DNA of 64,000 bases from Kiritimatiellia bacterium (GCA_012103575.1 WLWN01000001.1:1484538-1548537); one strand, 5' to 3'; shown: positions 1-42,998, counted from the first letter of the stretch. Notes: generated by a model from the sequence alone, not told the origin. Made by a program: numbers and translations.

Positions 1-3000
1 AAAACGTCCATGACCTTATTATCAGGTTCCAGAAACGCGATTTCCTCAGCATGCTCTAAGAGCGGATATAAAGCTTCCAGGCGCTTTTCCTCCACGCTAT
101 CGAACAGATCTTTTAAGCTCGGTATGTGATCGCATCCTGCCTGTTGATAGTTCTTTCGGATAACCCGTAAGTACGAATTCGGCAGGTACGGGGACGTAAA
201 TGCTCCGGCAAATAGTTGACATGGCAAAGGTAATTTACATTCTTGCAGGTGTAACGCCCACCCATAAGCTATCAGAGCCCCTACGCTGTGCCCATACAGG
301 GCATAAGGGTGATCTAGCTCAGAGGCTAATACTTCGGTCAGCACTCTTGAATACTCTTCAATCTCTTCAATAGGCGTCTCAAGAAGACGATCTTCACGCC
401 CGGGCAAATGAACCGGAACGACTTCAATCTTATCGGACATTTGCCCCTGCCAATCACGATAGATCGAAGCGGCTCCGCCGCCATAAGGAAAACAGTACAG
501 TCGCAGTTCGGCCTGTTTTCTCTTAGGACTTCGTATCCATTTCTTTTTATCGAGCGAATACTCTGTTAAGGTTCTGAACAAAGAGTCTGTAGGCCCTTTT
601 CCTTTGGCAGCTCTTTCTTGTAATCCTGCACAGACAAGCTGCTTACGTAGTTCTTCACTCAATTCGGTAATACTCGGTCCTTGAATTAACATGCCCACAG
701 AAATATCCAAGCCTAATCCTTGATCCAGTTTGTTTTTAAATTCCAAGCCCATTAAAGAGTCCATACCCATATCGAGCAGGGATTCGGTCACACTAAGTTC
801 TCCGGACGGTAATTTCAACAGACCGGACAGGTTTGTTCGAAGATAGTTTTCGATGTGATCAATTTGCTCTACTTCGGAGGCCGTTCCCCGCATCACAGCG
901 AGGAACTCTTCGTTGCGTTGCCCTAAAGAGGGACCACTGGCTTTTCTCAAAGCTTCTTTATGAGCTACGGTCAGCTCCTTCATCTGATAGTTTTTACTCC
1001 TGGCGAGCACTCCGCCTTTATCGGTGTAGAGCGTAAGACTTCCTTGCAATAGCCCTTTTTCATTGGGCATTCCGCTCGAACAGGCATGGCACCATAGAGG
1101 CGTTGTTAACTCGGCTTGTTCGAAGGTCAGTTCTCCAAGTTGGGTGACCATAAAACTGGAATCGCCCGCCACCGTCTCAGCCAACGTCGCGTGAAATAGC
1201 TGGGCGCATGCATCCCATATACCTGGGTGAAAAGGGTTTTGGTACGCTGAGCTTTGCTCTGGGTCTGTGGCCATTCGAAATTGGGCTAAGGCCTCTCCTG
1301 CTTTACTCCATACGTATTCTATCCATTGCACCGATCGGCCTAGTTTAATGCCTCGTTCTTCCATGCTTTGATAGAAAACCAGACCCGATTGACCTTTCTT
1401 GAGTTCTTCCTGGAACGCCGTCAAGGAGCGCTTTTGTTCGGACTGATCGATAAAGTCCACGGCCCCATGCACATGTTTCGTCCATTGCTCTGATTTTTGA
1501 TTCCGACTATGAAACGAAAAATTCAGGCCGACTTCAGCCGGTTCAAGCAGGAGTTGAACCTCGACCTCTTCGGTATCAGGAATCATCAACGCCACCTCAA
1601 AAGCCATCTCTCGAATCCGAAAGTCTCGGGTTCCACTTTTTTCCATCCCGGATTGCAACATCTCTAAAAGATATCCGATATGAACCACTCCATGCGTATC
1701 TTTCAGCTCGGGCGTTTGGGATAAACTCAGTTTATAGTGTACCTGTTTTACTTTGGACGGGCTTACTTGAAGCTGACCGATAAAGGGATGAGGGGCCCGC
1801 GTCTTCGAGGAAATGGGCTGGGGAACCCGTACTTCATAGCCTTCCTCCAGTCGCGGGATCCAATACGATCGTTTTCGAAACGGATAGGTCGGAGCCGGCA
1901 CTTTTCTTCGGCAACTTCCTTCATCATATCCTTTCCAATCCACTCCATGGCCTAAACTATAAAATTGCGCTGCCGCGTGAACGAATCCGTTCTCTATTGA
2001 AGCGATATCATACAACATCTTATAGGGCATGGACGTTAAGGCCTCTCCATATAATTGTTTCAGTAAACAAGGGGTTGTATGCAGCTCACACAGGATCGCA
2101 TTTTCTGTGGGCAGCAGCTTCTTCACATCCTGAGGCTGCGATGTTTGATCGTAGGCCTGCTCGATCAAGCCTTCATCGGTTAGATCGCTTCTGTTCAGCG
2201 CTTTCTTTTTCCCGGGCCATATGACCCGAACTCTTGGCATGGTCAAGGAATGTCGGGGCAGCTCTGCGAAGGACTCGGGGGCATAACGATGCACAAGATG
2301 TGGCACGGCCTCTTCCAAAGGTAATAGACCACTGGCAGCTGTCATGGAATACAACCCATCTTTTTGAGCATATACGCTATGTATTTGGATGCCCCAATGT
2401 TCCAATAACCGGAAGCTAGCGTAGGCAAAACTGAAGGTTAAAGCTGCATGGCTCAAGGTGTTCTTCACCGACGGGTCCTCGAGATTCGAGTTCACTTCCA
2501 CTAAACTTTTATGGATGTGGGGTTCAAACAACTCTTCACACTTTTCCCACGTTTTCCGAAAATAAGGCGTGGTGTCCAGAAAAGCTGGCAACCTTTTTAT
2601 CTCTTCGATCATCTCACCCGGAAAGAAAACGGTGATTTTGGCGGCTTTACCCGAAGGCGCATCATCATAATAGACACATGTAGAGGGTTTTTGAGTCTCT
2701 TGAAACCTCACCAGCCCCGACAACAATTCGTCTTGATCCGACCCCACACAGGCCATGCGATGGGCAAAATGAGAACGTCCCGCATTCGCCGTAAAGGCTA
2801 AAGACCCTATATCCATTGAGGGCGAATTTGTTAAAAAATGCCTATACGCTTCGGTTAACTCGGATAATGCCTCGGGGTTTTGGGCTGATAGCGTCAGGAT
2901 ATGCAGGGGCCTATCGGTTTTTCCGGCCGGGCTCTCCGAACACGTCTCTGGCGCTTCTTTGACGATCACATGTGCATTGGTACCGCTAAAACCGAAAGAA

Positions 3001-4319
3001 CTGACTCCCGCCAGACGAGGCGCCCCCTCCGGCGTTTCCCAATCCCGGTATGATGAGGGTAACAGGGCGGGTATAGCCTCCAGTTTTACCCTCGGGTTGA
3101 GTTCAGGACAGTTAATATGCGGTGGGATAGCCTTGTGCTGTAAGCACAACACCGTTTTGATCACTCCGGCAATACCCGCGGCCGCTTCCAAGTGACCTAT
3201 ATTGGCTTTGCATGTGCCCATCATCAAGGGGTTGTCTTGCCTTCGGTTTTGCCCGAAGACTTGTTTTAAAGATTCGAATTCAATCGGATCGCCAAGGGCC
3301 GTTCCCGTCCCATGCGCCTCCAGATAACTGATATCTTCGGGTTCTATGCCGGCTCGTTGAATCGCCTGTTTAAGAAGCGCTTTCTGCGCCTGACCGTTGG
3401 GAACGGTTAACCCACTGCTCGCTCCATCATGATTCACCGCCGATCCTTGTATGAGCGCTAAGATAGGATCCTGGGCACGCTGTGCCGCGCTCAAACGTTT
3501 GAGGACAATCAGACCGGCTCCCTCCCCGCGACCATAACCATCTCCATTGGCCGAGAAAGGCTTACAACGTCCATCCCGGGAAAGGGCCTGCATTTGGCAA
3601 AGTCCTACAAACGATTGAGGCCTCAGCATTAAGCCCACACCGCCGGCCACCGCAAGTTCACACTCATCGTTGTACAAACTTTCACAGGCCTGATGAATCG
3701 CGACCAATGATGACGAACAGGCGATATCAAAAGACAGGGCTGGGCCGTGGAAGCCAAAGACATGGGCAATGCGTCCCGACGCCATATGAGACGTGACACC
3801 TGTTATGGAATAGGGGCTGGTCTTTTCCGGATCTCGAGGCAGCATGGCATATTCCGAACCAATGATACCAATAAACGTACCTGCCGACTTCCCTTCTAAT
3901 TCACCCGGCGCCTGTCCGGCCCGCTCCATCGCTTCCCAGGTCAGTTCTAATAACAGGCGTTGCTGCGGATCCATTTCCTCGGCTTCCCGCGGAGAAATAT
4001 TAAATAACTTAGGATCAAACAAAGAGACATCTTCGGTTAAAAAGTTGCCTTGTTGAATGTAGAGTTTATTCGGTTTAACCTCTTCATCATAAAAGGCCCG
4101 GTTATCCCAACGCTTGGAGGGCACATCAGATAGGCCCTCTTGGCCAGCTTTGAGAAGGTTCCAAAACTTTTCAGGCGTATTGCACCCCCCGGGAAAGCGA
4201 CAGGCCATACTAATAACGGCCAGAGGTTCACGAACCTTTTCCCTCTTTAACGCTTGTTTCAAGCTCCTGATATGGGCCAAGGACTTTCTTAATAACATGG
4301 GTTGAGTCTGTTCAATCAT
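1..4319 (-). CDS. Polyketide synthase, terminal module, partial (C-terminus beyond window start): KS, degenerate AT-like region, DH-like region, ACP, thioesterase
   Basis: Minus-strand start ATG at 4319-4317 ('MIEQTQPMLLRKS...VISMACRFPGG'), overlapping the upstream PKS stop in an ATGATTGA arrangement. KS motifs 'DIACSSSL', 'EAHGTGTALGDP', 'KANIGHLEAAAG'. AT-like stretch 'ITVFFPGE...FAYASFRLLEHWGIQIHSVYAQ' lacks GQGSQ and GHSxG. ACP 'GMDSLMGLEF' near 700-790. TE 'YGHSVGALIAY' near 200-260. The ORF track misses it because the stop lies outside the window. Confidence 0.85.
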   Translation of the reverse strand, partial: MIEQTQPMLLRKSLAHIRSLKQALKREKVREPLAVISMACRFPGGCNTPEKFWNLLKAGQEGLSDVPSKRWDNRAFYDEEVKPNKLYIQQGNFLTEDVSLFDPKLFNISPREAEEMDPQQRLLLELTWEAMERAGQAPGELEGKSAGTFIGIIGSEYAMLPRDPEKTSPYSITGVTSHMASGRIAHVFGFHGPALSFDIACSSSLVAIHQACESLYNDECELAVAGGVGLMLRPQSFVGLCQMQALSRDGRCKPFSANGDGYGRGEGAGLIVLKRLSAAQRAQDPILALIQGSAVNHDGASSGLTVPNGQAQKALLKQAIQRAGIEPEDISYLEAHGTGTALGDPIEFESLKQVFGQNRRQDNPLMMGTCKANIGHLEAAAGIAGVIKTVLCLQHKAIPPHINCPELNPRVKLEAIPALLPSSYRDWETPEGAPRLAGVSSFGFSGTNAHVIVKEAPETCSESPAGKTDRPLHILTLSAQNPEALSELTEAYRHFLTNSPSMDIGSLAFTANAGRSHFAHRMACVGSDQDELLSGLVRFQETQKPSTCVYYDDAPSGKAAKITVFFPGEMIEEIKRLPAFLDTTPYFRKTWEKCEELFEPHIHKSLVEVNSNLEDPSVKNTLSHAALTFSFAYASFRLLEHWGIQIHSVYAQKDGLYSMTAASGLLPLEEAVPHLVHRYAPESFAELPRHSLTMPRVRVIWPGKKKALNRSDLTDEGLIEQAYDQTSQPQDVKKLLPTENAILCELHTTPCLLKQLYGEALTSMPYKMLYDIASIENGFVHAAAQFYSLGHGVDWKGYDEGSCRRKVPAPTYPFRKRSYWIPRLEEGYEVRVPQPISSKTRAPHPFIGQLQVSPSKVKQVHYKLSLSQTPELKDTHGVVHIGYLLEMLQSGMEKSGTRDFRIREMAFEVALMIPDTEEVEVQLLLEPAEVGLNFSFHSRNQKSEQWTKHVHGAVDFIDQSEQKRSLTAFQEELKKGQSGLVFYQSMEERGIKLGRSVQWIEYVWSKAGEALAQFRMATDPEQSSAYQNPFHPGIWDACAQLFHATLAETVAGDSSFMVTQLGELTFEQAELTTPLWCHACSSGMPNEKGLLQGSLTLYTDKGGVLARSKNYQMKELTVAHKEALRKASGPSLGQRNEEFLAVMRGTASEVEQIDHIENYLRTNLSGLLKLPSGELSVTESLLDMGMDSLMGLEFKNKLDQGLGLDISVGMLIQGPSITELSEELRKQLVCAGLQERAAKGKGPTDSLFRTLTEYSLDKKKWIRSPKRKQAELRLYCFPYGGGAASIYRDWQGQMSDKIEVVPVHLPGREDRLLETPIEEIEEYSRVLTEVLASELDHPYALYGHSVGALIAYGWALHLQECKLPLPCQLFAGAFTSPYLPNSYLRVIRKNYQQAGCDHIPSLKDLFDSVEEKRLEALYPLLEHAEEIAFLEPDNKVMDV

Positions 4320-7300
4320 AACGCTTTCCTTGAAGTTCATTGAGTAAATCGCGTTTAACATCTTCATCAGATAATGCGTCAATATCTCTATATACGGAAA
4401 CATCAAACAAATCCCCATCGAATAATTCGATCAACGCAATCTCCGTTTCTGTATCTATTTCTTCGGTTGGCTCCATCAGCCTATCCTGTGAGGGCACTGT
4501 TTGCTGATATAAGTCCTCCCAGGGGATGATCTCTAAAACGTGATCTGTTAATCGAGGCGCCGTTGGATAGTCGAACAATACTGTATCGGACAAGGTGGTC
4601 AGTCCGAACTGTCTGCGACAATCCTGTATCAGTTTTTCTGCTTGAATCGACTCCATGCCCATATTAAAAAATCCCGTTTCCAGATCAACGTCTTCGGTCG
4701 ATGCAAATCCTAAGAGCGCCTTGACTTGTTCTACGATCCATTCTTCTACTTCTTCTTTTCTATCCATGTCCGATAGATCGAGCAATGCTGCTACAAAAGT
4801 AGAGGTCTCTGACCTCGATGGAGGGGGGACCCTTTCAACCCCATTAGCCTGTTTAAGAAAAGAGGTGTCCTCTTTTGCCTGATCTGATACGGATATTATG
4901 GGGCCGGCAAGGGGGTTGCTTAGCCTGCCATTTTGACCCCCGCCTTCTTCTTTTTTGGCTTTGTTTTTCTCGACAATTTCTGTCATCCAATACCGTCTCT
5001 TCAAAAACGGATAGTTAGGCAGAGGCAAACATACACTCCCCCCATTATCTTCATATAGCCTTTCCCAGGGGATCAGCGTCCCCTGCACCCACAGCTGGGC
5101 TAATCGTTCCATCTTTCTTTTTTTCAGTAAGCTAGCCAAATAGTCCTGATCCTCTTTCACACCGTTCAACTTGAGCGCAGCTCCCACTTTTTCCGTATCC
5201 GCTTCATAATATTTCGTCTCTCGACCACCATTCCGGTCCTGATTGACATAGCCCTTCAATTGCTCGATCAAATCCGGTGTATCATTGACAACAAAGGCTA
5301 AACGATGGCGAAACAAGGCCCGTTTGGTTTGCAGGGTAAAGGCTAGATGCTGGATACTGGATACTGGACGCTGGATATTTGATTTTAAATACCCATGAAG
5401 ATTTCTGGCCAGTTCAAGCAGTTGGGACCGCACATGAGCCGAAAGCGGGATAACCACAGAAGATACCGCCCCGTCCATTGTTCGACCGTCTACCGGTTCA
5501 CCTTTCGACCTTTCACCTTTTTGACTTTTTGACTCATCGAGGTATTCCTCGATAATTACATGCACATTCACGCCACCGGCTCCAAAAGAACTGATTCCCG
5601 CACGTCGAGGCCATGCTTTCCCCTCTAGCCGAGGTTGTTCCCAAGTCGTCTTTTTTTCCTGAACATAAAAGGAAGAATTTTTGAAATCTATATTCGGATT
5701 CAACGGGCCATGTAATAAAGAAGGGACCAAAGTTTGGTGCTGCATTTGCAAAACCGTTTTTGTCAATTGCCCAATCCCGGCAGCCGCTTCCCCATGGCCG
5801 ATGTTCGATTTCACCGATCCGATCGCGCAGAATTGTTTTTTGTCTGTATGCTGTGTATAAACGTCCATAAGCCCTTGAATTTCGATCGGATCACCTAAAG
5901 CCGTCCCGGTTCCGTGCGCCTCAACATAGCTAATACTCTCAGGAGAAATACGGGCTTGGGCCAGCGCAGCTCCAATCGCTTTTGATTGAGATACAGGATT
6001 AGGTACTGTATAACTCTGAGTTTTGCCGTCATGGCTCACGCCCGTTCCTTTAATCACCGCTAAAATAGAATCCCCATCCGCTTTGGCCCGTTGATAAGGC
6101 TTCAACAATACCACCCCAACTCCTTCACTGGGAACATAGCCATCCCCATCAGCTGCAAACGCATGACAACGGCCATCACTGGAAGCAAAACCACCGGAGC
6201 AAAGGGTCGCATATTTACTCGGATGAAGCGTTAAATTAACGCCCCCCGCCAAGGCCAGACTACACGCTCCTCGCTTCAAGTTTTCACAGGCTTCATGAAT
6301 CGCAAATAAAGAGGAGGCACAGGCCGTATCCAGGGTAAAACTCGGTCCGGTGAAATTAAAAAAATAAGAAACCCGATTGGCAATCGAAAAGGTTTGTGAA
6401 TTCGCCGGATAACTGGGGCCAGGGCCAGCGGCCTCGGCCATCAACAATTGGTAATTATTAAAGGTGACACCGGCAAACACCCCGATGTTTCGGGCTTCCC
6501 TTTGCCAATGAGGATGGATAAAGCCGGCTGTTTCCAGACATCCCCAAGCCATTTCCAGGAAAAGCCGCTCCTGGGGATCCATAAAACGTGCGTCTTGAGG
6601 CGAAATATTAAAAAAGAGCGGGTCAAATTGATCCACCCCATCAAGAAACCCTCCCCATTTGCAATAGAGGGAATCCGTCCGGCCTTTTTCGGTATTAAAA
6701 TATGAACGATAATCAAATCTGTCTCGTGGAATCTCGGTAATACAATCCTTCCCCTGACTCAAATTATCCCAAAATGCCATCAGATCAGGGGCCTGTGGAT
6801 ATCGTCCACTCATCCCAATAATCGCGATATCCTCATTGGAAACCTGTTTTCCGGAGAACCTCGCGGAGAAACGCGCATGCCCAAAGGAGGTCAGATCCTT
6901 GGAGTGTTGTACCTTGACCTTGCCATTCAATGAGCGCGCACCTATTTTCCGGGGCTGCTCTGCGATCATCATATCTGCAGCATAAGCCTCGCTTAAAAAC
7001 TTCGCCAGAGAAGACAAGGTTTTGTATTTAAAAAAGAGGGTGGCATCTAATTTACCCAACCACTTTTCTACTTGTTGATTCAACGTCGTAATCATAATCG
7101 AATCTAAGCCCAATTCTTCCAGATCGGCTTCTACATTGATTTTTTCCTTGGGAATTTGTGTGATTTCAGTAACGATAGATGTCAACTTATTCAGCGCATA
7201 AGACCTTGCATCGACGTTGGAGAGCTCATTTTTTCCTTGGACTTCTTTATCCGTCTGATTACCGGCGCGGGCTTCTTGCTCTTGGGTGGAATCTTCGGTA

Positions 7301-10300: not shown

Positions 10301-13300
10301 GCTATAGACAGTACCGATCGATTCGGAAGCAGGTACGCTTGCTCTTGAAGACCCGCCCATTGAGCACAAGCTTGCGGATAATCAGCTATAAAATAGTCTG
10401 TTAATGCTTTTAATGTTTGATATTCAAAAAACAAGGTTTTGGAAATCTCTCCAAACACGCCTTCCAGTTTCTGATTCAGCTGCGTGATCAATATCGAGTC
10501 GATCCCATAACGCTCCAAGGGCTCTTCCGAATCGATTTTCGAGATAGATAGCTTGATCATTTCTCCAAACAGTTTTTTGAATTCATACAAGGTTTTTTCT
10601 TGCAAAAGGTGAGGGTCCATGGCCGGTACGGGTGATTCTTTGACAGGCACTACGGTTTGATCGGCAAGGAAAACGTTTCTTATCTTCTCTACATCCCCCT
10701 CCATGACCATCACTTGAGAGGTTCCCGAAGATAAGCCCTGATAAAACGCTTCGATCCCGGTGGATGTTTGCATCGCCACCATGCCCGTTCTCTCTGTGAT
10801 CATCTGCTCGGTGGCTTCATCCACGCTCATTCCCCCTTCTTTCCATAACGGCCAATTCATCGAAAGCGTTTGGCCGCTTCTCTCTGAGTCTATTCGAACA
10901 TTGCGATACCTGGCAAAAGTATCCATAAACGCATTGGCCGTGGCGTAGTCCGCTTGACCCACGTTGCCGATAGCTCCGGATACGGAGGAAAACAAAACAA
11001 AAAAGTCTAAAGACAGATCCTGCGTGGCTTCATCCAGATAAATGACTCCCTCCACCTTCGGCTTTAGCGTCTCTTCAAACTCTTCCCGGGGTTTCTTCAA
11101 AATAAAATTGTCCCGAATCAATCCCGCGCTATGAAGAATGCCATTGATTCCCCCAAAATCGTTTCGAGTCTCTTCAATGAGCCTTTCAACCGCTTGTTGA
11201 TCGGAAACATCCACAGTATGGTATTCAACGTTTGCTCCCAGGCTTTCTAATTCTTTGAGCTTTTCTTTGATCGGTTCGCTGAGCTCTGAACGACCCGTGA
11301 GGATCAGTCTTGCGCTTTTCGTTCTTTCCGCAATCTCTTTGGCAAAGATCAGGCCCAGTCCTCCAGCGCCACCGGTGATTAAATAGACACCTCCTTCTTT
11401 CCAGGGAATCTCTTTCTGAGCATGAGCCGTTGACCTTTCTTCAAAAACCTGCACTAGACGTTTGGTTCCTTCATAGCGAATACACTGATCTTCCGGACAT
11501 TTTACATTCTCTTGGAGTCTAGAGATGATTTCTTTGGGTGGTTCTTCTTCGCCCACTGCAATCACCTGACCCATGAGTTTAGGGTTTTCCAAATGAGCGG
11601 TCTTTAACAACCCTGAAACCCCTGAAAAAGTTTGTTCGAACCCTTCAGCGGGAACCAATACCTGGAGCAAAACAGGACCTTCAGGTTTGCCCTCCACTAT
11701 CTTCTGAGTGCGTTTAAACAGGTCCAAGGCAAACTCTTCAAAGCGTTTTCCAAGCCTTTTTTGATCCGGCTTCAGTTCTATAAAAGATCGTTCAGAGGCT
11801 CTATGACCTACGGATTCATTCCTTTGAGTTAAACCGCACAAGAACACTTGATGGTCCGCATATTCGGGGATGTTTTGCTTTGGATCAACCGCTCTTTCTC
11901 GCCAAACCGGCTGGAACATCAAAGTCCCTGTCGTTTCCGATTTTTCTAAGACTCCTTCCGGGGTTTGGGAAAAGAAATCTCTCAGCTTCACACACACCTT
12001 CCCATTCTCATCACACAGATCAATGTCCAACTTCTGGACACGGGCCGTTGTTCCGCTGCTACCGGAACGGTGTACATGAGCCCACATTTTTTCTGAGCAG
12101 TAATCTATGATTTCAAGGCGGTTCAAGGAGGCTAAGAAGGGTTCTTGGTTTCCTTCTTTGCTCAAAGAGCTGCGAAGGACAGGCTTGGTTGTTGGGTTGT
12201 CCTCCATAGCTTTCTCCTCCGCCAAGCCTTTAGTGAACAAGTCAGCGGAGGCAGATTTTTGGTTCGTAAAGCCTGAGCCGATAGCAGCTTGAAGAGCTGA
12301 ATCCAAAAGGCTGGGATGAAGGGTGAATTGGTCTTTGGTCTCCAACACGCAAGAAGGGATCTTTAATTGGGCCAACACTTCATCATCGCCAACATAGAGT
12401 TTTTCTATTCCTTGGTGAGCGGGACCATATTCAATGCCTATTTTTTTAAAGACCGTATAGCATTCCTCGGCGCTTAAAACACGTTGAGTACACGTTTCCT
12501 GAAGGGCTTTCAGATCGAGCTTAGGGTGTTGGTCCGCTGAGGCGAACACCGCCACCCCTTGACTGTGCACGACGATTTCATCTTTTGAACTTTTTTCGTG
12601 TTTCGAATCTCGAAGTTCGAATTTCCCATCCACCGGAGGGGCCGTGTAGATTTCATAGGCGATTTCTCCATTATCTTCAGGGTAAAGCCCAATATGGACA
12701 TCCTGAGGTTGATCGTCCACAGCAAACGGCCACGCCCACACCACATTTTTGAGCTCTATTATTTGATTCTCTTTAGGAAATTCTCCAGAAGCCTGCTCTA
12801 CTGCCGCGCGCGCCATCTCCAGGTAAGCGACTCCAGGTAAAACCTTTTCTCCCTTTACCTGATGATCTTCCAAAAAGAACTCCTTACCGGTAAACATAGA
12901 GCTGAATCGCTGCTCTTCCAATGTCGAGGTATTCTCATGAACGAACGGATGCAGCCTCTTACTGACCATATCTTCGGCCATGCCGTTGGCTTGGCAAACT
13001 TGGTAAGCCTCTGACTTCTGTCTTCTGCCCTCTGTCCGTTCTACCCAATATCGCTCTCTTTCAAAGGGGTACGTAGGAAGGGATACCCTGTAACTAATTT
13101 TTGGATTGGCAAGGTTCGACCAATTCACCTTATAGCCCTGAACAAAAGCTTCTGCTAGTGTGAATAAATCTTTGTGATAGTTCGACTCATCTTTTGTCCG
13201 TTTATTTTCAAGTTTCGCTAAAATTTGATCACATTTTTCTTTGGTCTCTGTTGAGGCTTTAGAAGACCTTGAACTATACATGACTGAGTCCCGGCATGTT

Positions 13301-14904
13301 TTTCCCGTTAAAATACGCAGAATTTTGTTTCGCAAATCTTGTGCATCTTTTACAACGCAAGCAAAACGATACTTAAAATGCTTGCGCCCGACCTGCAAGG
13401 TATAAGCGATATCACGAATTGAAGGCTGTTCTCCAACCGCTTCGAACCAATCTGATAAATCATTGATTTTTTGGTTAAGAGACCCTTCTGTTTTAGCGGA
13501 TAGAGGGATTAAATAACATGGTGCCTTTTCTTTTCCCTCACGCCTCCCCTGTTCCGGAGCTTCCTCCAAGATTAAAAAAGAATTGGTTCCGCCTATACCT
13601 AAAGAATTTATACACGCTCGCCTGGGGCTTTGGTCTTTCACGGTCCATGGTTTAAGCTTTGTGTTTACATAAAAAGGTGTTTCGTTAAAATCAATCTTAG
13701 GGTTGGCCGTCTTATAGTTTATACAAGGGACTAAGGTTTTGTGTTTTAGACACATCGCTGTTTTTATCAAACTAGCAACTCCCGCTGCGATATCTAGATG
13801 ACCTATATTGTTTTTAACAGAACCCAACGCACAATAGTCCCCTTTATGCGTGGCAGGAGAATCAAACATGCGTGTTAAGGCTGTCACTTCCACCGGATCG
13901 CCCATAGCGGTGCCTGTACCATGCGCCTCAACATAATTCACGGTCTTGGGAGAAACCTTGGCCTTCTCAAAGGCTTTGCGCATACAACGCACTTGTCCGG
14001 TAGCCGTTGTGGCCATGTAGCTCATCTTCTGGCCACCGTCATTATTGAAAGCAGACCCTTTGATCACTGCATAGATTTGGTCATGATCCCTCATGGCCTG
14101 TTCCAGGGGCTTTAACAAAACTAACCCTAAGCCACTCCCAAAAACGATCCCTTGGGCATCGGCGTCAAACGCACGAACGTGACCATCATGGGAGAAGATG
14201 CTGTCTTTCTTTAAAGCATAGCCCACTCGATGGGGGATTCGGATATTCACGCCTCCGGCCAAGGCCATATCGCATTCCTGATGCAGAATACTTTGACACG
14301 CCAGATGAACCGCCACCAAAGAGGTCGAACAGGCCGTCTGCACGTTGATGCTTGGGCCTTTGATGTTCAATTTATAAGAAACCCTTGTACTGACAAAATC
14401 TTTATCATTGCCCAGGTGCTCTATGCCGCCTGTTGCACCACGGATCGTGGAATCATATCTCAGGCATTCCAGCAAATAATTGCTCACAGCTCCACCCGAA
14501 CCGCTAAAGACTCCAACCATAGGCACCAGCTTCTCTGGCACATAACCGGCATCCTCGAACGTGGCCCACGCACATTCGAGTAACAAGCGTTGTTGAGGAT
14601 CTAGTACTTTGGCTTCAACTGGAGGTATATTAAAAAAAGAGGCATCAAACTTGTCTATATCATCTAAAACAGGAGCGGCCTTAATGTAATGGGCCGCTTG
14701 GATAAAAGATTCTTCTACACCGGCTTCTCTCAACTCTTCATCTCTAAAAAAGGTAATGCTTTCTTTACCTTCTTTAAGGTTTTCAAAAAATTCAGGAATG
14801 GATGAGGCGCCGGGAAAGCGTCCGCTCATCCCAATGATGGCAATATCTTCACTCAGGACCTCTTTTTTCTTCTTTAGCATGTGCATCCACATCTTATCAC
14901 TCAA
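4312..14904 (-). CDS. trans-AT type polyketide synthase, 3530 aa: KS-DH-KR-ACP-KS-DH-ACP-KS-ACP, no integrated AT domains
   Basis: Three KS domains with active-site Cys ('TACSTS', 'MCSSSL', 'TACASS') plus 'EAHGTGT' and 'N(I/V)GH' motifs. Each KS is followed by a post-KS linker ('LSAKTEGSL...AYTLQVGRKHF', 'LPxYPFxRxRYW') with no AT. DH motif 'HxxxGxxxxP' appears twice ('DHQVKGEKVLPGVAYLEMA'). KR Rossmann 'ITGGAGGLGLIFAKEIA'. ACP serines 'GIDSI', 'GLDSI', 'GMESI'. Start ATG overlaps the ACP gene stop (ATGA). Confidence 0.9.
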   Translation of the reverse strand: MSDKMWMHMLKKKKEVLSEDIAIIGMSGRFPGASSIPEFFENLKEGKESITFFRDEELREAGVEESFIQAAHYIKAAPVLDDIDKFDASFFNIPPVEAKVLDPQQRLLLECAWATFEDAGYVPEKLVPMVGVFSGSGGAVSNYLLECLRYDSTIRGATGGIEHLGNDKDFVSTRVSYKLNIKGPSINVQTACSTSLVAVHLACQSILHQECDMALAGGVNIRIPHRVGYALKKDSIFSHDGHVRAFDADAQGIVFGSGLGLVLLKPLEQAMRDHDQIYAVIKGSAFNNDGGQKMSYMATTATGQVRCMRKAFEKAKVSPKTVNYVEAHGTGTAMGDPVEVTALTRMFDSPATHKGDYCALGSVKNNIGHLDIAAGVASLIKTAMCLKHKTLVPCINYKTANPKIDFNETPFYVNTKLKPWTVKDQSPRRACINSLGIGGTNSFLILEEAPEQGRREGKEKAPCYLIPLSAKTEGSLNQKINDLSDWFEAVGEQPSIRDIAYTLQVGRKHFKYRFACVVKDAQDLRNKILRILTGKTCRDSVMYSSRSSKASTETKEKCDQILAKLENKRTKDESNYHKDLFTLAEAFVQGYKVNWSNLANPKISYRVSLPTYPFERERYWVERTEGRRQKSEAYQVCQANGMAEDMVSKRLHPFVHENTSTLEEQRFSSMFTGKEFFLEDHQVKGEKVLPGVAYLEMARAAVEQASGEFPKENQIIELKNVVWAWPFAVDDQPQDVHIGLYPEDNGEIAYEIYTAPPVDGKFELRDSKHEKSSKDEIVVHSQGVAVFASADQHPKLDLKALQETCTQRVLSAEECYTVFKKIGIEYGPAHQGIEKLYVGDDEVLAQLKIPSCVLETKDQFTLHPSLLDSALQAAIGSGFTNQKSASADLFTKGLAEEKAMEDNPTTKPVLRSSLSKEGNQEPFLASLNRLEIIDYCSEKMWAHVHRSGSSGTTARVQKLDIDLCDENGKVCVKLRDFFSQTPEGVLEKSETTGTLMFQPVWRERAVDPKQNIPEYADHQVFLCGLTQRNESVGHRASERSFIELKPDQKRLGKRFEEFALDLFKRTQKIVEGKPEGPVLLQVLVPAEGFEQTFSGVSGLLKTAHLENPKLMGQVIAVGEEEPPKEIISRLQENVKCPEDQCIRYEGTKRLVQVFEERSTAHAQKEIPWKEGGVYLITGGAGGLGLIFAKEIAERTKSARLILTGRSELSEPIKEKLKELESLGANVEYHTVDVSDQQAVERLIEETRNDFGGINGILHSAGLIRDNFILKKPREEFEETLKPKVEGVIYLDEATQDLSLDFFVLFSSVSGAIGNVGQADYATANAFMDTFARYRNVRIDSERSGQTLSMNWPLWKEGGMSVDEATEQMITERTGMVAMQTSTGIEAFYQGLSSGTSQVMVMEGDVEKIRNVFLADQTVVPVKESPVPAMDPHLLQEKTLYEFKKLFGEMIKLSISKIDSEEPLERYGIDSILITQLNQKLEGVFGEISKTLFFEYQTLKALTDYFIADYPQACAQWAGLQEQAYLLPNRSVLSIAEEFPVLRALKSTQGCGRGLSVSMSRTGTQDPMAIIGMSGRYPQANTIEEYWEHLKSGKDCITEIPPERWSLNGFFHEDPQEAVAQGKSYSKWGSFLEGFADFDPLFFNISPREAMNIDPQERLFLQSCWEALEDAGCTREHLATQFNQRVGVFAGITKTGFNLYGPELKKQRGGISPHTSFSSVANRVSYLLNIQGPSMPIDTMCSSSLTAIHEACEHLRHGACELAIAGGVNLYLHPSTYIELCAQQMLSKDGQCKSFGKGGNGFVPGEGVGVVLLKRLSKAIEDQDHIYAVIRATSVNHGGKTNGYTVPSPKAQGALIRETLEKAGIDARSVSYMEAHGTGTELGDPIEVTGLTQAFQKDTLDTGFCALGSAKSNVGHLEAAAGIAGLTKIVLQMKYGQLAPSLHAMELNPNIHFSKTPFIVQQQLEDWKRPTLTIKGETKEYPRIAGVSSFGAGGVNAHAVIEEYLDESKVEGPKSQSKEGPYLIVLSAKDEDRLKAYVQHLIDYLQPLTPCLQDVAYTLQVGREAMEERLGLIVHSMEELKEKLQRFMDGKEDVEDLYLGQVKRNKETLDVFTADEDMAKIIDMWVRKGKYSKLLDLWVKGLILDWNKLYGDTPLRRISLPSYPFARVRYWIKGNAESGVRNAETGKELHPLLHENTSDVSELRFSSTFTGKEFFFADHQVRGEKVLPGAAYLEMAREAVKQACGEWAKDPQRIELKNVVWAMPIAVNGHPRQVNIGLFPEENGEIQYEIYSELEKDNGSVTTVPQQQLRDGMDTRVVHSQGVVEVCGVETSEGAPTAEPIDVQGLQETCTQRVLSADECYAAFKRMGIEYGPAHKGIEKLYVGENKVLAKLTLPSSIADTKDPFTLHPSLLDSALQASIGLNFANQQSSSADLFTDFSSAARCAKGEAMEDKPITKPVFRSSLSEGGDQEPFLASLERLEILDRCTESMWAWVQSCQGSPSSKQALKLDIDLCDDLGHVCVRMKAMEMQTYLEPFTEDSTQEQEARAGNQTDKEVQGKNELSNVDARSYALNKLTSIVTEITQIPKEKINVEADLEELGLDSIMITTLNQQVEKWLGKLDATLFFKYKTLSSLAKFLSEAYAADMMIAEQPRKIGARSLNGKVKVQHSKDLTSFGHARFSARFSGKQVSNEDIAIIGMSGRYPQAPDLMAFWDNLSQGKDCITEIPRDRFDYRSYFNTEKGRTDSLYCKWGGFLDGVDQFDPLFFNISPQDARFMDPQERLFLEMAWGCLETAGFIHPHWQREARNIGVFAGVTFNNYQLLMAEAAGPGPSYPANSQTFSIANRVSYFFNFTGPSFTLDTACASSLFAIHEACENLKRGACSLALAGGVNLTLHPSKYATLCSGGFASSDGRCHAFAADGDGYVPSEGVGVVLLKPYQRAKADGDSILAVIKGTGVSHDGKTQSYTVPNPVSQSKAIGAALAQARISPESISYVEAHGTGTALGDPIEIQGLMDVYTQHTDKKQFCAIGSVKSNIGHGEAAAGIGQLTKTVLQMQHQTLVPSLLHGPLNPNIDFKNSSFYVQEKKTTWEQPRLEGKAWPRRAGISSFGAGGVNVHVIIEEYLDESKSQKGERSKGEPVDGRTMDGAVSSVVIPLSAHVRSQLLELARNLHGYLKSNIQRPVSSIQHLAFTLQTKRALFRHRLAFVVNDTPDLIEQLKGYVNQDRNGGRETKYYEADTEKVGAALKLNGVKEDQDYLASLLKKRKMERLAQLWVQGTLIPWERLYEDNGGSVCLPLPNYPFLKRRYWMTEIVEKNKAKKEEGGGQNGRLSNPLAGPIISVSDQAKEDTSFLKQANGVERVPPPSRSETSTFVAALLDLSDMDRKEEVEEWIVEQVKALLGFASTEDVDLETGFFNMGMESIQAEKLIQDCRRQFGLTTLSDTVLFDYPTAPRLTDHVLEIIPWEDLYQQTVPSQDRLMEPTEEIDTETEIALIELFDGDLFDVSVYRDIDALSDEDVKRDLLNELQGKRYD

Positions 14905-15167
14905 CTTGTGTTCAGACTTTTTTCATAGGCCTTTGCTATATCTTCTACTGTTCTCATTTCAGTGATGACGGCACGATTTGTACTAAAAGGGTCCACCTCC
15001 AATTTATTCTCAAGAAAGGCAACTAGACTCGCCACATATAATGAAGAAAAACCCAGATCTTCAACCAGACTATCGTCATCCTGGACTTCAGAAATACCTA
15101 GCTCTTGTTCTTCGTTTATTTGCATAATGAAATCTTTAACCGTTTGATTAATTTCTTTATAGTCCAA
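14901..15167 (-). CDS. Stand-alone acyl carrier protein (probable starter-unit carrier)
   Basis: 88 aa with phosphopantetheine-site motif 'EDLGFSSLYVASLVAF'. Stop overlaps the PKS start (ATGA). Lies between the SDR and the PKS. Confidence 0.8.
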   Translation of the reverse strand: MDYKEINQTVKDFIMQINEEQELGISEVQDDDSLVEDLGFSSLYVASLVAFLENKLEVDPFSTNRAVITEMRTVEDIAKAYEKSLNTS

Positions 15168-15185
15168 TTTATTTTCTCCTTTAAT

Positions 15186-15911
15186 TTAACACGTAAGACC
15201 ACCATCTATAATTAACGTTTGACCCGTTATAAATTCTGCATCTTTAGACAACAGAAAGCGCACCATCCCAACGATGTCTTCAACTTTCCCCAGCCTATTT
15301 AAAGGGGTCCGACGGATAATCTGCTTTCTTTTTGCCTCTCCAAGCATAGCGCCCATCTCTGTATCCATATACCCTGGTGCAATGGCGTTCACACAAATAT
15401 TTCGGCCACCGAGCTCTCGGGCCAAAGACCGAGTAAACCCGTCTAAAGCAGATTTGGTCGCACTGTAGACCGCCACTCCTGAATGTCCTCGAATACCCAC
15501 AATGGAAGATATGTTAATGATTATACCCCTTCCCTGTTGTAACATATATTTTGCACACGTTTGGGTCAGATGAAGCGGACTCTTTAGGTTTAAAGATATC
15601 AGCTGATCAATATCACCTGAATTCATTAAGGTTAGTATTCCATCTGAGGCCATCCCCACGTTATTTATCAACCCATCGATTTGGCCATACTTTCTAAAAA
15701 CTTTCTGCGCAAAGAGCTTCAACGCTTCAAGATCTGTACCCTCTATAGATTCCCAATAGAATCGCTCTGAACTTTCAGCCTCCTGCGTTTTTTCGATAAA
15801 TTCTGTTTTGCTCCTGCTGTACGTTGCTACACTATAGCCATGTCTTAATAAATCTTCGACGACCCCTTTACCCAGACCTTTGCTACCGCCACTCACACAT
15901 ATAACCTTCAT
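15186..15911 (-). CDS. Short-chain dehydrogenase/reductase, FabG-like 3-oxoacyl-ACP reductase family
   Basis: N-terminal 'VSGGSKGLGKGV' Rossmann motif, 'NISSIVGIRG' and catalytic 'YSATKSAL' (YxxxK), 241 aa. Confidence 0.85.
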   Translation of the reverse strand: MKVICVSGGSKGLGKGVVEDLLRHGYSVATYSRSKTEFIEKTQEAESSERFYWESIEGTDLEALKLFAQKVFRKYGQIDGLINNVGMASDGILTLMNSGDIDQLISLNLKSPLHLTQTCAKYMLQQGRGIIINISSIVGIRGHSGVAVYSATKSALDGFTRSLARELGGRNICVNAIAPGYMDTEMGAMLGEAKRKQIIRRTPLNRLGKVEDIVGMVRFLLSKDAEFITGQTLIIDGGLTC

Positions 15912-15935
15912 AGTCTTTGGATCCCTCCTATTATC

Positions 15936-17393
15936 TTAACCCTGCGTTGAGCAATAATGAGCTTCTTGACTTTTGATCCTTTGTTTTTTAAAACGATAGC
16001 CCATAAGAGAGTCTTTACTGATCTGAACGACAACAGGAATTTTAAAAGGCTCTACACAATCTAAACAAAAGGCCTTCATACGCTTTCGCAAATCTATCAC
16101 ACTTTCTTCTCGTTCCAAAACAAACGTGGCGCAAACCACCTGCCCCATTATAGGATTGGACTTACCCTCCACCTTAACATCTTGCACATAAGGCATCTTC
16201 AATAATACGCTTTCGACCTCCACGGGATACACCTTCTCTCCTCCCACATTAATCATGTCACTGACCCGACCTAAAATACGGTAATACTCGCCCTTTTTTT
16301 CCACACGATCACCCGTATTATACCAACCTAGATTATCAAAAGGTGAAGGGGCATTGAGGTACCCACGCATAGCGCCCTGACTACGAATCCAAAGCTCTCC
16401 GTCACGCACTTGCAAAGAAACGCCTTCTCCTGCAATTTTCATCCAATTAGAATCCGAATTTTTCGACTGCGTATTAAAAATATCCAGCTCTGTAAGACCA
16501 TAGGTTTGTTTGAGTTTAACCTCAGGAAAGAGGGCATGTAAGGCCTTTAAGGTAGAATGGGGCATTGGTTCGGTGCCATATGTAATCATTTTTAGACTAG
16601 AAAGATCATGTTTGCGATACAGGGAGGATAATAGAAGCATGTTTAAGAAGCTAGGGGTCGCTGGTAGAAGCTCGATTTTATGCTTTTCAATAGCTTGACA
16701 AACCGCTTCAACCGAACGTTCCTTTGAACAGACCATGCACCCTCCATTTAACCAGATTGAAAGTAGGGTATGAATACCGCCAATGTGATCTAGTTTGAGA
16801 AAGATTAGACTCCTCCACGGCCTCCTCATCTCTTCAAATTTTCTTAAAATATGCTTGGTCTGTAATAACGCGGCCTTGCTTGTACCTGTTGTTCCAGAAG
16901 TAAAAATGACCACGCCTCCATCGTTTTCTTTTTGTAATTCAGTAATCAAACTCGGACAAACAGAGGGAGAACGTTTAACCCATTTACAGTTTGGAGTGTC
17001 AAAATAACCCTCCACTCCGGAAATGCTCCATTTTTCTTCATACTCAGCAACATCTTCAGACAAAGGCACCAGGATGTTCCGATTTAAAAGCAATACCAAA
17101 AAAAGTACCAAACAAGAAAAATCCTCCCGAACCACAACGCCAATCACCTGACCCGGTTGAATATCTAATTCATCGAGTTTTCTTTGCCATTGATAAACTT
17201 CACGTTGCAGGCAGTCATAGGTATAAGTTTCGTCATTACCAATAAAACAAAATGAATCTCCAAAAGAGAACAAGCGTTCTAAAACCCAAGAATAGATTCC
17301 AAACACCCTTACTTCTTCATGTTGGCTCTCTTTATCTTCAGAAAGTCTTTTCTTTTCGATTTTGATATCCTTACGCCTACTTTCTATACCCAA
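15936..17393 (-). CDS. AMP-dependent synthetase/ligase (acyl-AMP or acyl-ACP ligase, probable starter activation)
   Basis: Adenylation motifs 'IFTSGTTGTSKAA', 'TYGLTE', 'YNTGDRV', 'GRVSDMINVGGEKVYPVEVE'. Co-oriented with ACP, SDR and PKS. Confidence 0.85.
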   Translation of the reverse strand: MGIESRRKDIKIEKKRLSEDKESQHEEVRVFGIYSWVLERLFSFGDSFCFIGNDETYTYDCLQREVYQWQRKLDELDIQPGQVIGVVVREDFSCLVLFLVLLLNRNILVPLSEDVAEYEEKWSISGVEGYFDTPNCKWVKRSPSVCPSLITELQKENDGGVVIFTSGTTGTSKAALLQTKHILRKFEEMRRPWRSLIFLKLDHIGGIHTLLSIWLNGGCMVCSKERSVEAVCQAIEKHKIELLPATPSFLNMLLLSSLYRKHDLSSLKMITYGTEPMPHSTLKALHALFPEVKLKQTYGLTELDIFNTQSKNSDSNWMKIAGEGVSLQVRDGELWIRSQGAMRGYLNAPSPFDNLGWYNTGDRVEKKGEYYRILGRVSDMINVGGEKVYPVEVESVLLKMPYVQDVKVEGKSNPIMGQVVCATFVLEREESVIDLRKRMKAFCLDCVEPFKIPVVVQISKDSLMGYRFKKQRIKSQEAHYCSTQG

Positions 17394-17400
17394 ACCTGCC

Positions 17401-17922
17401 TCATGCTGGTTGTGGCTCTTTTTTCGAGGAACTGACTACCTCTTCACTTTTTTTTACAGCTTCATCAAATTCTTTTTTTGCTTTCTTTTTGCAAAAACTT
17501 AATAAGGTTCCGCCTGATTCAAAGTGCTTGATAAAGACCCGACCCACCGCATAGGTAGACGCGCCGGAAAAAATCGGCATGGTCACTGCTCCTATCGTCG
17601 GCCCAACGAGGGGGATCATTTTGATCAAACCCGCCGCTGGCCTGGACAACGTCGATGGAAAAAGTCCGCCCAGTAGAGAACCGATAATATTTTTCGCTGT
17701 ATTTCTGAAAAATTTCACTTCGTAAACCTTGCAGATTCTTCGCAGCATATTGAGCTGGAACCCGGTTACGGCTACTAGATCAACTACCGGAATTGGCACC
17801 AATCCAACGCCAGTCGTCCACAAAATCGTATTCTTTACGATATTATCCGCCTCAAGTTTCTTGGCATTCACCTCTTGATTTTCGCTTTTTTCCACTTCTT
17901 CTACTGTTGGCTTTTTAGGCAT
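17401..17922 (-). CDS. Hypothetical membrane protein, DUF697/YcjF-like
   Basis: 173 aa with hydrophobic core 'GVGLVPIPVVDLVAVTGFQLNMLRRI', Lys-rich N- and C-termini. Family assignment is from memory of the DUF697 pattern. Confidence 0.45.
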   Translation of the reverse strand: MPKKPTVEEVEKSENQEVNAKKLEADNIVKNTILWTTGVGLVPIPVVDLVAVTGFQLNMLRRICKVYEVKFFRNTAKNIIGSLLGGLFPSTLSRPAAGLIKMIPLVGPTIGAVTMPIFSGASTYAVGRVFIKHFESGGTLLSFCKKKAKKEFDEAVKKSEEVVSSSKKEPQPA

Positions 17923-18078
17923 GGTGACCCTCCTTTTCTGATGTTAATATTACCTTCTTATCCTGCTTATTCCATTCGCAGATTCCTCAAATTTGTTTAG
18001 AGACTTATATCATGATTGAAACCGTATCAATCAAAAAATGATTTTTTGTTGGCCCTTCTCGGAAAGCATCCCGTTTAA

Positions 18079-19191
18079 TCAAAGTTTTTTATTACCCAAA
18101 GTTTGGGTTTCACGCATTGAAATATTGATAAGAATACCGACCATCACCATGGTCATAACCAGACTCGACCCTCCAAAACTGATAAAGGGTAATGCCAACC
18201 CTTTTGTGGGCAAACTGCCCGTCACAACACCTATATTGATTGCAGCCTGAAATGTAATAATCATGGTAATGCCCATCCCTAATAACCGGGCAAACAGGTC
18301 AGAGGTATGTGTGCTAATATATAAACCACATATAAAAAACCCTAAAAATAAGGCCACCACAATCATGGAGGCTATCGGTCCTAATTCTTCGCCAATAATC
18401 GCAAATATAAAATCAGTATGCGCTTCGGGCAAATAAAAACGTTTTTGCATACTCTGTCCCAATCCAACGCCTTTAGACCCACCGATGACAAAAGCTTTGA
18501 TCGCATTTAGTAATTGGAAGGCCTCATTCTGCGCATATTTTTCAGGATTTAAAAAGGCAATGATGCGTCGTAATCGTTCAGGGCTCTCCAGAATAGCGGC
18601 TATAAAACAGATACTTCCTAATAGCGCGGATATAAAAAGATACCCAATTTGAGTACCCCCTATAAACATAATGGCCATCCCCACGACGGCGATGAGCATG
18701 GTTGTTCCAAAATCAGGTTCCACAAAGATTAAGATTAACGTAACCCCTAATCCAGCTAATGGAATAAGCAGCCCTTTTTTAAAATCCTGCGCTTTACGTC
18801 GAATATGGGACATCCACCCCGCTAACCAAATGAGGGTCGTTATTTTAGCTAGTTCAGACGGTTGAAAATTCAGAGGCCCTAATTTTAACCAACGACTGCT
18901 GCCTTTCACTTTATGGCCCACTCCTGGGATAAGGACTAAAACCAATAGCACAAAGGAAAAGATGAGTAATGGAACAGCTAGTTTTCGCAAAATAGAATAA
19001 TCTATTCGAGACACTACAACACTAGCAAGGGTCGCTAAAGCAAGCCATATTAGTTGATGCTTAAGAAAGTAATGGGGATCGTCGTATCGAATTTGACCTT
19101 GAACAGCGCTGGTACTCGCTAGCATCACAATGCCAAGGGTTATTAAAATCAGAACAATCCCAACGAGTATACTTCTGGCTTTCCACATCAT
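18079..19191 (-). CDS. ftsW: SEDS-family peptidoglycan glycosyltransferase FtsW
   Basis: 370 aa, multi-TM, conserved FtsW/RodA regions ('PSELAKI', 'EPDFGTTML', 'LPEAHTDFIFA', 'GLALPFISFGGSS'). Positioned in the dcw cluster. Confidence 0.85.
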   Translation of the reverse strand: MMWKARSILVGIVLILITLGIVMLASTSAVQGQIRYDDPHYFLKHQLIWLALATLASVVVSRIDYSILRKLAVPLLIFSFVLLVLVLIPGVGHKVKGSSRWLKLGPLNFQPSELAKITTLIWLAGWMSHIRRKAQDFKKGLLIPLAGLGVTLILIFVEPDFGTTMLIAVVGMAIMFIGGTQIGYLFISALLGSICFIAAILESPERLRRIIAFLNPEKYAQNEAFQLLNAIKAFVIGGSKGVGLGQSMQKRFYLPEAHTDFIFAIIGEELGPIASMIVVALFLGFFICGLYISTHTSDLFARLLGMGITMIITFQAAINIGVVTGSLPTKGLALPFISFGGSSLVMTMVMVGILINISMRETQTLGNKKL

Positions 19192-19273
19192 TTTCAGTTC
19201 ACAGTTCCCGGTTCGTTAAAACAGTTTAGGCGGGTATGAACCCCGAGCCGCAAACCCTGAACCAGGAACCTTT

Positions 19274-20182: not shown

Positions 20183-20199
20183 CTTTTTTCTCCCATGGT

Positions 20200-42995: not shown

Positions 42996-42998
42996 CCC

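Follow-up and report, generated by a model that had tools for sequence, protein, structure and literature searches.

What can a polyketide synthase (PKS) make when its four ketosynthase (KS) modules come without a working acyltransferase (AT), and when its last module carries an AT-like and a dehydratase (DH)-like region that both lack the usual motifs? This question is raised by a locus at positions 1 to 17,393 of a 64,000-nucleotide (nt) stretch of DNA (the window) from a Kiritimatiellia bacterium (GCA_012103575.1, WLWN01000001.1:1484538-1548537). Our analysis favours, at about an even chance, a functional chimeric four-module AT-less ('trans-AT-type') PKS, most likely making a small aromatic polyketide. 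All genes of the locus are on the minus strand, in the 5' to 3' order DUF697 gene, adenylate-forming ligase (AMP-ligase), FabG-like short-chain dehydrogenase/reductase (SDR), acyl carrier protein (ACP), PKS1 and PKS2 (Table 1). Pfam, self-BLAST and motif search agree on the domain order KS-DH-KR-ACP / KS-DH-ACP / KS-ACP in PKS1 and KS-AT0-DH*-ACP-TE in PKS2 (KR, ketoreductase; TE, thioesterase; AT0 and DH*, the AT-like and DH-like regions).

Pfam found three KS, two DH, one KR, three PP-binding and three post-KS linker sets in PKS1, and KS, linker, PS-DH, PP-binding and Thioesterase in PKS2. The KR of module 1 is the only one in the assembly line. Acyl_transf_1 has no match across the 4969 amino acids (aa) of the two proteins. 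In place of an AT, each KS is followed by a linker: KAsynt_C_assoc, RhiE-like_linker and CurL-like_PKS_C each match three times in PKS1 and once in PKS2, and every linker closes with (L/S)P(T/S/N)YPFxxxRYW. No elongating module has a functional integrated AT, and the intact AT in every module that marks a cis-AT modular PKS (GQGSQ, GHSxG and HAFH/YASH) is absent. The initial annotation had described four KS modules in two genes without integrated ATs, a linker after each KS and the domain order given above, and all of this holds. It had also made its trans-AT reading depend on the absence of intact AT motifs from the post-KS regions and on a Cys-His-His triad in every KS. No such AT motif was found, and Cys, HGTGT and N(I/V)GH are present in all four KSs. 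Catalytic motifs are likewise complete in the two DHs of PKS1, the KR, the TE, the four integrated ACPs and the free ACP, and the carrier-protein Ser residues are all present. Neither stop codons nor frameshifts interrupt the 15.2 kb that code for the PKS, and both giant open reading frames (ORFs) are unbroken.

PKS2 crosses the left edge of the window. It is 100% identical to the database protein P0001 (1531 aa), and therefore 92 C-terminal residues fall outside the window. The ACP-TE end was annotated correctly, with the TE being cut by the edge after 167 aa; its Asp and His are in the missing 92 aa, where P0001 shows GSKDD and GDHFF. P0001 is carried by the ENA scaffold L001, which is identical to the window across 14.3 kb, and the same PKS2 is encoded by the NCBI contig L002 of a metagenome-assembled genome (MAG; GCA_012267705.1).

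The KSs were typed by their bit scores against solved KS structures in PDB. KS2 scored 872 bits with 4z37, 670 with 7zmc and 661 with 4zdn, compared with 416 for CurL and 347 for DEBS. KS3 scored 557 with 7zmc and 551 with 5erb, compared with 381 for CurL. Thus, trans-AT KS structures gave 520-870 bits for these two domains and CurL/DEBS gave 320-420, and by this measure KS2 and KS3 are clearly of trans-AT type. The order is reversed in KS4 (CurL, 518 bits; DEBS, 443; trans-AT KSs, at most 399), which indicates that the terminal module is of cis-AT ancestry. KS1 has its best single-KS matches in 4wky, 8xjy, 4oqj, 6mhl and ClbC (403-508 bits; CurL, 349; DEBS, ~270), and on these scores resembles hybrid-type KSs and KSs accepting non-polyketide or starter acyl groups. 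By KS lineage, the trans-AT reading of the initial annotation is supported for KS2 and KS3, KS4 being nearest to cis-AT KSs and KS1 to the hybrid or starter-accepting type. A terminal module of cis-AT descent with a dead AT is joined to three trans-AT-type modules, so that the line is a chimera.

This terminal module is not a peculiarity of one genome. In the AT-like region, PGEMIE stands where GQGSQ is expected and AQKDG where GHSxG is expected. Alignment with intact ATs shows that the Ser nucleophile is missing and that a deletion of ~80 aa has taken out the small subdomain, HAFH motif included; a match to the CurL AT is still seen over residues 4-131 of the AT0 query. In the DH-like region, THGVVHIGYLLEM lies at PKS2 residues 875-887 (nt 1659..1697), giving the motif DTHGVVH(880)IGY, and D1036 lies in HPGIWDACAQ. 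We found ~40 full-length homologues of 1450-1620 aa with the order KS-AT0-DH*-ACP-TE, 37-55% identical to PKS2 where identity was computed. Their hosts are Bacillus cereus, Priestia, Paenibacillus, Clostridia, Streptomyces, Actinokineospora and several MAGs, including members of the Planctomycetes-Verrucomicrobia-Chlamydiae (PVC) group. GQGSQ and the Ser of GHSxG are missing in all of them, and in all of them D-T-H-G-x-x-H-(V/I)-G-Y-(Y/F)-x-E replaces HxxxGxxxxP. The second His of this motif (H880 in PKS2) is invariant, and the Asp of HPGxxDACAQ (D1036) is kept in most members. As homologues across phyla share the same state of AT0 and DH*, it is not local decay but a conserved, family-wide state. 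The initial annotation was thus right that the AT-like region lacks GQGSQ and GHSxG and that the DH-like motif is unusual, but not in calling that motif degenerate.

A DH* profile run over 1.84 billion representatives matched 399 proteins at E ≤ 1e-30. Forty new profile matches carry the DH* motif, and the GHSxG of a C-terminal TE, where present, follows ~400-480 aa past it. Four forms occur among the profile matches: with AT0, without an AT region (~1290 aa), fused to the end of PKSs of 3-6 kaa, and with an intact cis-AT, which two family members (P0171 and P0217) retain. A 'GHSVG' in P0121 was considered as an active AT site and rejected, as it aligns upstream of the AT start. Word-indexed searches gave five matches for the AT0-DH* region and none for the DH* profile, and were uninformative. 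No characterised producer was found among the cluster members of 20 representatives, in which only the names Vallitalea, Clostridium, Streptomyces and Actinophytocola appeared.

The curacin PKS is the closest source of structures for this module. CurL is the best match of KS4 (518 bits) and of the AT relic, and the DHs of CurJ, CurK and CurF are the best matches of DH*. The AlphaFold model of DH* (pLDDT 87) is a double hotdog, and its best folds are the CurJ, CurF and CurK DHs, with TM ~0.8; the sequence match to the CurJ DH has an E value of 3.5e-41. DH* retains the Asp of DxxxQ as these DHs do. It differs from them in that HxxxGxxxxP is replaced, and AT0, unlike the curacin ATs, has neither nucleophile nor small subdomain. 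Pyran synthases and DHs of the enoyl-isomerase type generally keep HxxxGxxxxP and lose the Asp. DH* shows the opposite pattern, and this type was set aside for that reason. Heterocyst-glycolipid and polyunsaturated-fatty-acid-type synthases were rejected because they carry ATs, and enediyne and 6-methylsalicylic-acid-type iterative PKSs because their architecture differs.

The company of the terminal module is conserved too. In each of five related loci (L003, L084, L086, L088 and L089), an AT-less PKS has the PKS2 homologue as its final protein, and domain mapping placed KS-ACP, KS-ACP without reductive domains before the terminal module. In the KS tree, the penultimate KSs of the six loci group together, with KS3 56-78% identical to the others, and the terminal KSs form a second group, with KS4 54-74% identical to the others. 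This grouping and the shared module order indicate that KS(n-1)-ACP / KS(n)-AT0-DH*-ACP-TE has been inherited as a unit across phyla. Homologues of ACP2 are found in the antepenultimate module of L003, L084 and L089 (57-62% identity). Neighbours at the related loci include beta-branching cassettes. In L084 and L089, a phenol-type O-methyltransferase (Dimerisation/Methyltransf_2) lies directly downstream of the homologue, which is the one indirect hint at an aromatic product. The present locus differs from the five in having a DH in module n-2, in consisting solely of the terminal series and in its distinct accessory genes.

What such a series may do is suggested by known systems. A markedly non-canonical 'PT-like DH' (PT, product template) was described by Niehs et al. 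(2020) for the last module of four benzolactone PKSs, those of necroxime, oximidine, lobatamide and apicularen, where it was proposed to form the salicylate ring (PMC7318616). According to Ueoka et al. (2020), the terminal four modules build the benzolactone benzene ring, and psymberin and legioliulin owe their benzene rings to comparable series of four modules (PMC7586987). The initial annotation saw no obvious match to a known pathway. This did not hold, as the domain order fits such a benzene-forming terminal series with a PT-like DH (PMC7318616, PMC7586987). Like the benzolactone-enamide PKSs, the present one is an AT-less line whose last module carries a non-canonical DH directly before ACP-TE, with DTHGVVHIGY in place of HxxxGxxxxP. 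In those systems, too, a terminal four-module series is credited with the ring, and the legend of the figure names an AT and 'possibly inactive domains'. Before the terminal module, the present line has modules of a kind that leaves the keto groups needed for ring closure (there is no KR in module 2, and module 3 consists of KS-ACP). Unlike the benzolactone-enamide PKSs, the four modules here are the whole line, probably primed through an AMP-ligase and a free ACP and not by a long non-ribosomal peptide synthetase/PKS, and the host is a PVC-group MAG. Because the penultimate module is KS-ACP, the expected ring would be of resorcylate type (two OH) and not a salicylate. A tblastn search against plasmids returned only matches of 21-29% and no necroxime-type cluster.

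Legioliulin is similar in that it starts from a free acid, and the ligase of the present locus has a weak affinity to 4-coumarate- and 4-chlorobenzoate-CoA ligases. Module 1 has a DH here, so an isocoumarin lactone is not expected, unlike in psymberin and legioliulin. The only Legionella homologue found, P0123 (DH*-ACP-TE, 30% identity, motif DTNNLMHVGYFIE), lies in a transposase-disrupted remnant, and we therefore make no link from it to legioliulin. A further parallel is AviM, whose DH-like bacterial PT catalyses C2-C7 aldol closure via a His, the loss of which gives a pyrone (PMC9135731). Like the iterative bacterial orsellinic acid synthases AviM and CalO5 (KS-AT-PT-ACP), the terminal module has a DH-like double hotdog after KS-AT, proposed to act on a 3,5,7-triketo thioester by C2-C7 aldol closure, and P0171 and P0217 even keep an active cis-AT. 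The AviM PT uses a His/Asp dyad, and DH* keeps an invariant His and a mostly conserved Asp. The present line is unlike AviM in being modular and not iterative, in having a TE and a dead AT, and in its His motif; beyond the general DH fold, there is no detectable homology, so that DH* does not belong with the AviM-type PTs.

From these comparisons, the following pathway can be proposed. The AMP-ligase would adenylate a carboxylic acid (aryl, cinnamoyl-like or fatty) and load it onto the free ACP, from which KS1 would accept it. An AT encoded elsewhere would malonylate ACP1 to ACP4. Module 1 (KS-DH-KR-ACP) would yield an alpha,beta-enoyl chain, and modules 2, 3 and 4 would add three C2 units with unreduced keto groups. 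The keto groups are expected to stay unreduced because there is no second KR and because KS3 groups with KSs that follow reduction-free modules. The result would be a 3,5,7-triketo thioester on ACP4. DH* may then act as an aldol cyclase (C2-C7), like bacterial and fungal PTs, to give a 2,4-dihydroxy-6-alkenyl-benzoyl (resorcylate-type) thioester, which the TE would release as 2,4-dihydroxy-6-alkenylbenzoate.

Several observations weigh against this proposal. The position of the canonical catalytic His is not conserved in the DH* family: in an alignment of the family profile with CurJ, the CurJ catalytic His meets a non-conserved position, and the invariant His adjoins the position of the Pro. 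The nearest relatives of DH* are the ordinary Cur dehydratases, and the AviM PT is missing among the PDB matches of both the single DH* sequence (phmmer) and the family profile. DH* is likened to the terminal DHs of Nec, Lbm, Oxi, Api, psymberin and legioliulin by description, not by sequence. The canonical DH2 in the KR-less module 2 is left without a task, and aldol closure could be blocked by the SDR of the operon through reduction of the keto group at C7. The five compared loci contain no counterparts of the ligase, SDR, ACP, SnoaL_4 and phosphoenolpyruvate (PEP)-utiliser-like genes. Finally, neither a free-standing AT gene nor a phosphopantetheinyl transferase (PPTase) gene was found in the 64-kb window (1..64000) or in the 3.1 kb downstream of it (L001). 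The trans-acting AT had been placed beyond the window; it is indeed not in the window, but it is not encoded with the cluster in the downstream 3.1 kb either.

Stand-alone ATs are encoded at three related loci (L084, 651 aa; L089, 624 aa; L090, 282 aa). The last of these loci, L090 (JGI 3300020906, Ga0207155_1003), is very compact. It has a single AT-less PKS of 5722 aa with an AprA-like N-terminus and five KSs, which ends in DH*-ACP-TE without an AT relic and is flanked by the 282-aa AT, an HMGS cassette and a PPTase.

The main rival to an aromatic product is a pyrone, which we consider unlikely. Here, the SDR would serve as a trans-acting KR for module 2 and DH2 would dehydrate the product to a dienoyl chain, which modules 3 and 4 would extend to a 3,5-diketo thioester; ring closure by the TE, with the help of DH* or spontaneously, would give a 4-hydroxy-6-dienyl-2-pyrone. 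This would give work to DH2, which is fully canonical and has no obvious substrate because its own module has no KR. The best family of the SDR is 3-oxoacyl-ACP reductase (NCBIfam TIGR01830, 215 bits, under the cut-off of 298), and the SDR may act either in starter tailoring or as a trans-acting KR. Pyrones are also the spontaneous fate of such chains; the AviM H949A mutant gives the lactone (PMC9135731), and the O-methyltransferases beside the homologues fit 4-methoxy-pyrones as well as phenols. However, the sequence of a trans-AT KS tracks the type of its incoming substrate (PMC7586987), and the ACP2-KS3 unit is orthologous to units after reduction-free KS-ACP modules in the five loci, where KS3 has its relatives of 56-78% identity. 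Furthermore, spontaneous lactonisation would not readily explain why a specialised DH* with an invariant His has been conserved, and the five related loci lack a homologue of the SDR. DH1 and DH2 are 61% identical, C-terminal extensions included, which looks like an intragenic duplication.

The second rival concerns the starter, and we consider it quite improbable. Under it, starter loading is not the task of the ligase, SDR and ACP, and the PKS is primed otherwise, for example by decarboxylation of malonyl-ACP; in a variant, the three genes tailor or load something else, or the SDR modifies the starter before its transfer. The ligase contains TSGTTG, YGLTE, GWYNTGD and GRVSD..GGEK in its translation, and no family matches it above threshold: NCBIfam gave only sub-threshold matches to fatty-acid/MenE-type ligases. 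Its best PDB relatives are weak (~80 bits; 4-coumarate-, 4-chlorobenzoate- and fatty-acid-CoA ligases), and, as far as sequence comparison goes, these matches are no firm clue to the identity of the starter. None of the three genes has a counterpart in the five loci. The initial annotation had placed them upstream of the PKS genes in the same orientation, which is correct, with ATGA-type overlaps, which is only partly so. Genes overlap at two junctions only, ACP/PKS1 (TTGA, given a TTG start) and PKS1/PKS2 (ATGATTGA); ligase and SDR are separated by 24 nt and SDR and ACP by 18 nt, gaps that would fit the rival better than overlaps would. Against it, the three genes are on the same strand and tightly spaced, and the ACP stop overlaps the PKS1 start. 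The first domain of PKS1 is a KS, and a loading domain is absent. The similarity of KS1 to KSs accepting non-polyketide acyl groups fits loading from the ligase and the free ACP, and in this sense the earlier proposal of dedicated starter-loading genes is upheld at the level of sequence resemblance. In the Streptomyces locus L088, too, an AMP-binding enzyme is accompanied by a small ORF of ACP size, and legioliulin has an acid starter, cinnamic acid (PMC5126622).

That the locus is a decaying, non-functional remnant which has lost its AT is very unlikely. In its favour, the window does hold damaged genes (a zwf gene lacking an internal segment, an Alpha-E gene with a frameshift and a shortened transposase), an AT and a PPTase are missing from the window and the 3.1 kb downstream, and the two short-read assemblies both end shortly downstream, at what is probably a repeat. 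Against it, ~15 kb of unbroken ORFs with all catalytic motifs intact speak for function, and the AT0 and DH* states are common to homologues in free-living Bacillus, Paenibacillus and Streptomyces.

Table 1. Coordinates of the genes and domains of the PKS locus in the window
Feature	Position	Strand	Basis or remark
DUF697 gene, possibly co-transcribed, cluster membership uncertain	17401..17922	-	Pfam
Adenylate-forming acyl ligase, 485 aa, TTG start	15936..17393	-	Pfam AMP-binding and AMP-binding_C; putative starter activation
Free-standing FabG-like SDR, 241 aa	15186..15911	-	Pfam adh_short_C2/adh_short
Free-standing ACP, 88 aa, Ser in LGFSSL	14901..15167	-	PP-binding barely over Pfam cut-off
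PKS1, 3530 aa, KS1-DH1-KR-ACP1/KS2-DH2-ACP2/KS3-ACP3 and C-terminal tail, no AT	4312..14904	-	
KS1 (VQTACSTS, HGTGT, NIGH)	13585..14868	-	motifs
DH1, canonical (HQVKGEKVLP, DSALQ)	12112..12960	-	Pfam, motifs
KR (GGAGGLG, YATAN)	10837..11775	-	Pfam, motifs
ACP1	10375..10590	-	Pfam, self-BLAST
KS2, trans-AT type (IDTMCSSS, HGTGT, NVGH)	8935..10236	-	motifs, PDB scores
DH2, canonical motifs	7465..8349	-	self-BLAST, motifs
ACP2 (LGLDSI)	6970..7209	-	self-BLAST, motifs
KS3, trans-AT type	5545..6834	-	motifs, PDB scores
ACP3 (GMES)	4510..4752	-	Pfam, motif
PKS2, KS4-AT0-DH*-ACP4-TE	1..4319	-	1531 aa whole, 1439 in window
KS4, cis-AT type (FDIACSSS, HGTGT, NIGH)	3000..4229	-	motifs, PDB scores
AT0, dead acyltransferase relic	1815..2654	-	CurL AT match, alignment with intact ATs
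DH*, non-canonical double hotdog, putative aldol cyclase ('PT-like DH')	900..1796	-	motif, model
ACP4 (GMDSL)	651..845	-	Pfam, motif
Thioesterase, N-terminal 167 aa (GHSVG)	1..503	-	Pfam; remainder beyond window

The DUF697 gene ends 7 nt ahead of the ligase start. On the other side, downstream of PKS2 and beyond the window (L001 14636..17121), lie genes for a SnoaL_4 protein (216 aa) and a 612-aa protein, which has only the swivel/C-terminal part of PEP-utilising enzymes (RedH/PigC/Rph-like) and no ATP-grasp part. A convergent ORF follows, and both short-read assemblies end there, at the probable repeat. A metagenome scan with the 612-aa protein gave a best match of 38% identity, and none of the matches adjoins a PKS or SnoaL_4 gene. 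The scan thus yields neither an extension of the locus nor support for the protein being a PKS accessory.

Upstream, mraZ-rsmH-ftsL-ftsI-murE-murF-mraY-murD-LysM-ftsW is at 29720..18079 (minus strand), followed by the PKS island. As the island comes directly after ftsW and the DUF697 gene, it sits inside the division and cell wall (dcw) cluster, at the usual place of murG; murG, murC and ftsQAZ are not found in the 64-kb window. The order murD-LysM-ftsW is common to 20 related PVC MAG loci, and the identity of MraY to proteins from MAGs of Verrucomicrobiota, Kiritimatiellia and Lentisphaerota does not exceed 72%. Taken together, these identities and the shared gene order place the organism as an uncultured member of the PVC superphylum. 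A genome scan with PKS2 found no relative, and the species has no representative among the scanned genomes.

Elsewhere in the window there are housekeeping genes and some pseudogenes. The zwf gene (glucose-6-phosphate dehydrogenase; 62477..63239, minus strand) is a true pseudogene with an internal deletion: its two fragments are in different frames, a 95-aa ORF matching G6PD_N 2-54 and a 178-aa ORF matching G6PD_C 135-296. In a CP_ATPgrasp_2/Alpha-E/transglutaminase operon (40985..45551, plus strand), Alpha-E is split by a frameshift into 42957..43784 (profile 1-183) and 43582..43935 (profile 185-294), and an ORF for a 23S-rRNA-intervening-sequence protein (42474..42869) lies between the ATP-grasp and Alpha-E genes. 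A truncated DDE_Tnp_1_4 transposase (39379..40197, minus strand; profile 178-427 of 435) is an insertion sequence remnant. At 48011..49038 (plus strand), a Peptidase_Mx-like ORF (192 aa, partial profile) is overlapped by a 160-aa ORF without a Pfam match and may be a frameshifted gene. Large ORFs at 30811..38627 (plus strand), among them one of 958 aa at 31601..34477, have Ig-like, glucodextranase-B, CarboxypepD_reg or TSP3 repeats or no Pfam match, and probably encode surface or secreted proteins. The decay noted earlier in this genome is therefore real to this extent, but the symbiont pattern drawn from it is not borne out, as nothing ties the organism to symbiosis.

A literature search by accession gave no match, and in the searched literature ring formation by a PT-like DH in AT-less PKSs is a bioinformatic proposal only, with no biochemical test. 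It is tempting to go further and see the locus as a stand-alone four-module benzene-ring cassette, although we hold this speculation with little confidence. From an acid loaded by the ligase it would make an alkenyl- or styryl-resorcylic acid, working with no AT of its own and borrowing the FabD of the cell, and its aldol cyclase would be of a third, independently evolved kind, namely a Cur-type DH in which the catalytic His has moved and which has no relation to the fungal PT or the AviM PT. Such a line would follow the same tetraketide logic as the plant stilbene-carboxylate synthases, on a modular line.

In summary, the locus is not new machinery but an intact, unusually small representative of a known type in a little-explored PVC/Kiritimatiellia-like lineage. 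The terminal modules of the family form a series from an active cis-AT through a dead, truncated AT to no AT at all, which documents how a cis-AT module was absorbed into trans-AT lines. The whole presumed ring-forming series fits into a short operon with ~15 kb of PKS genes, which makes the locus a small test system, convenient for heterologous expression and for point mutants of DH*.

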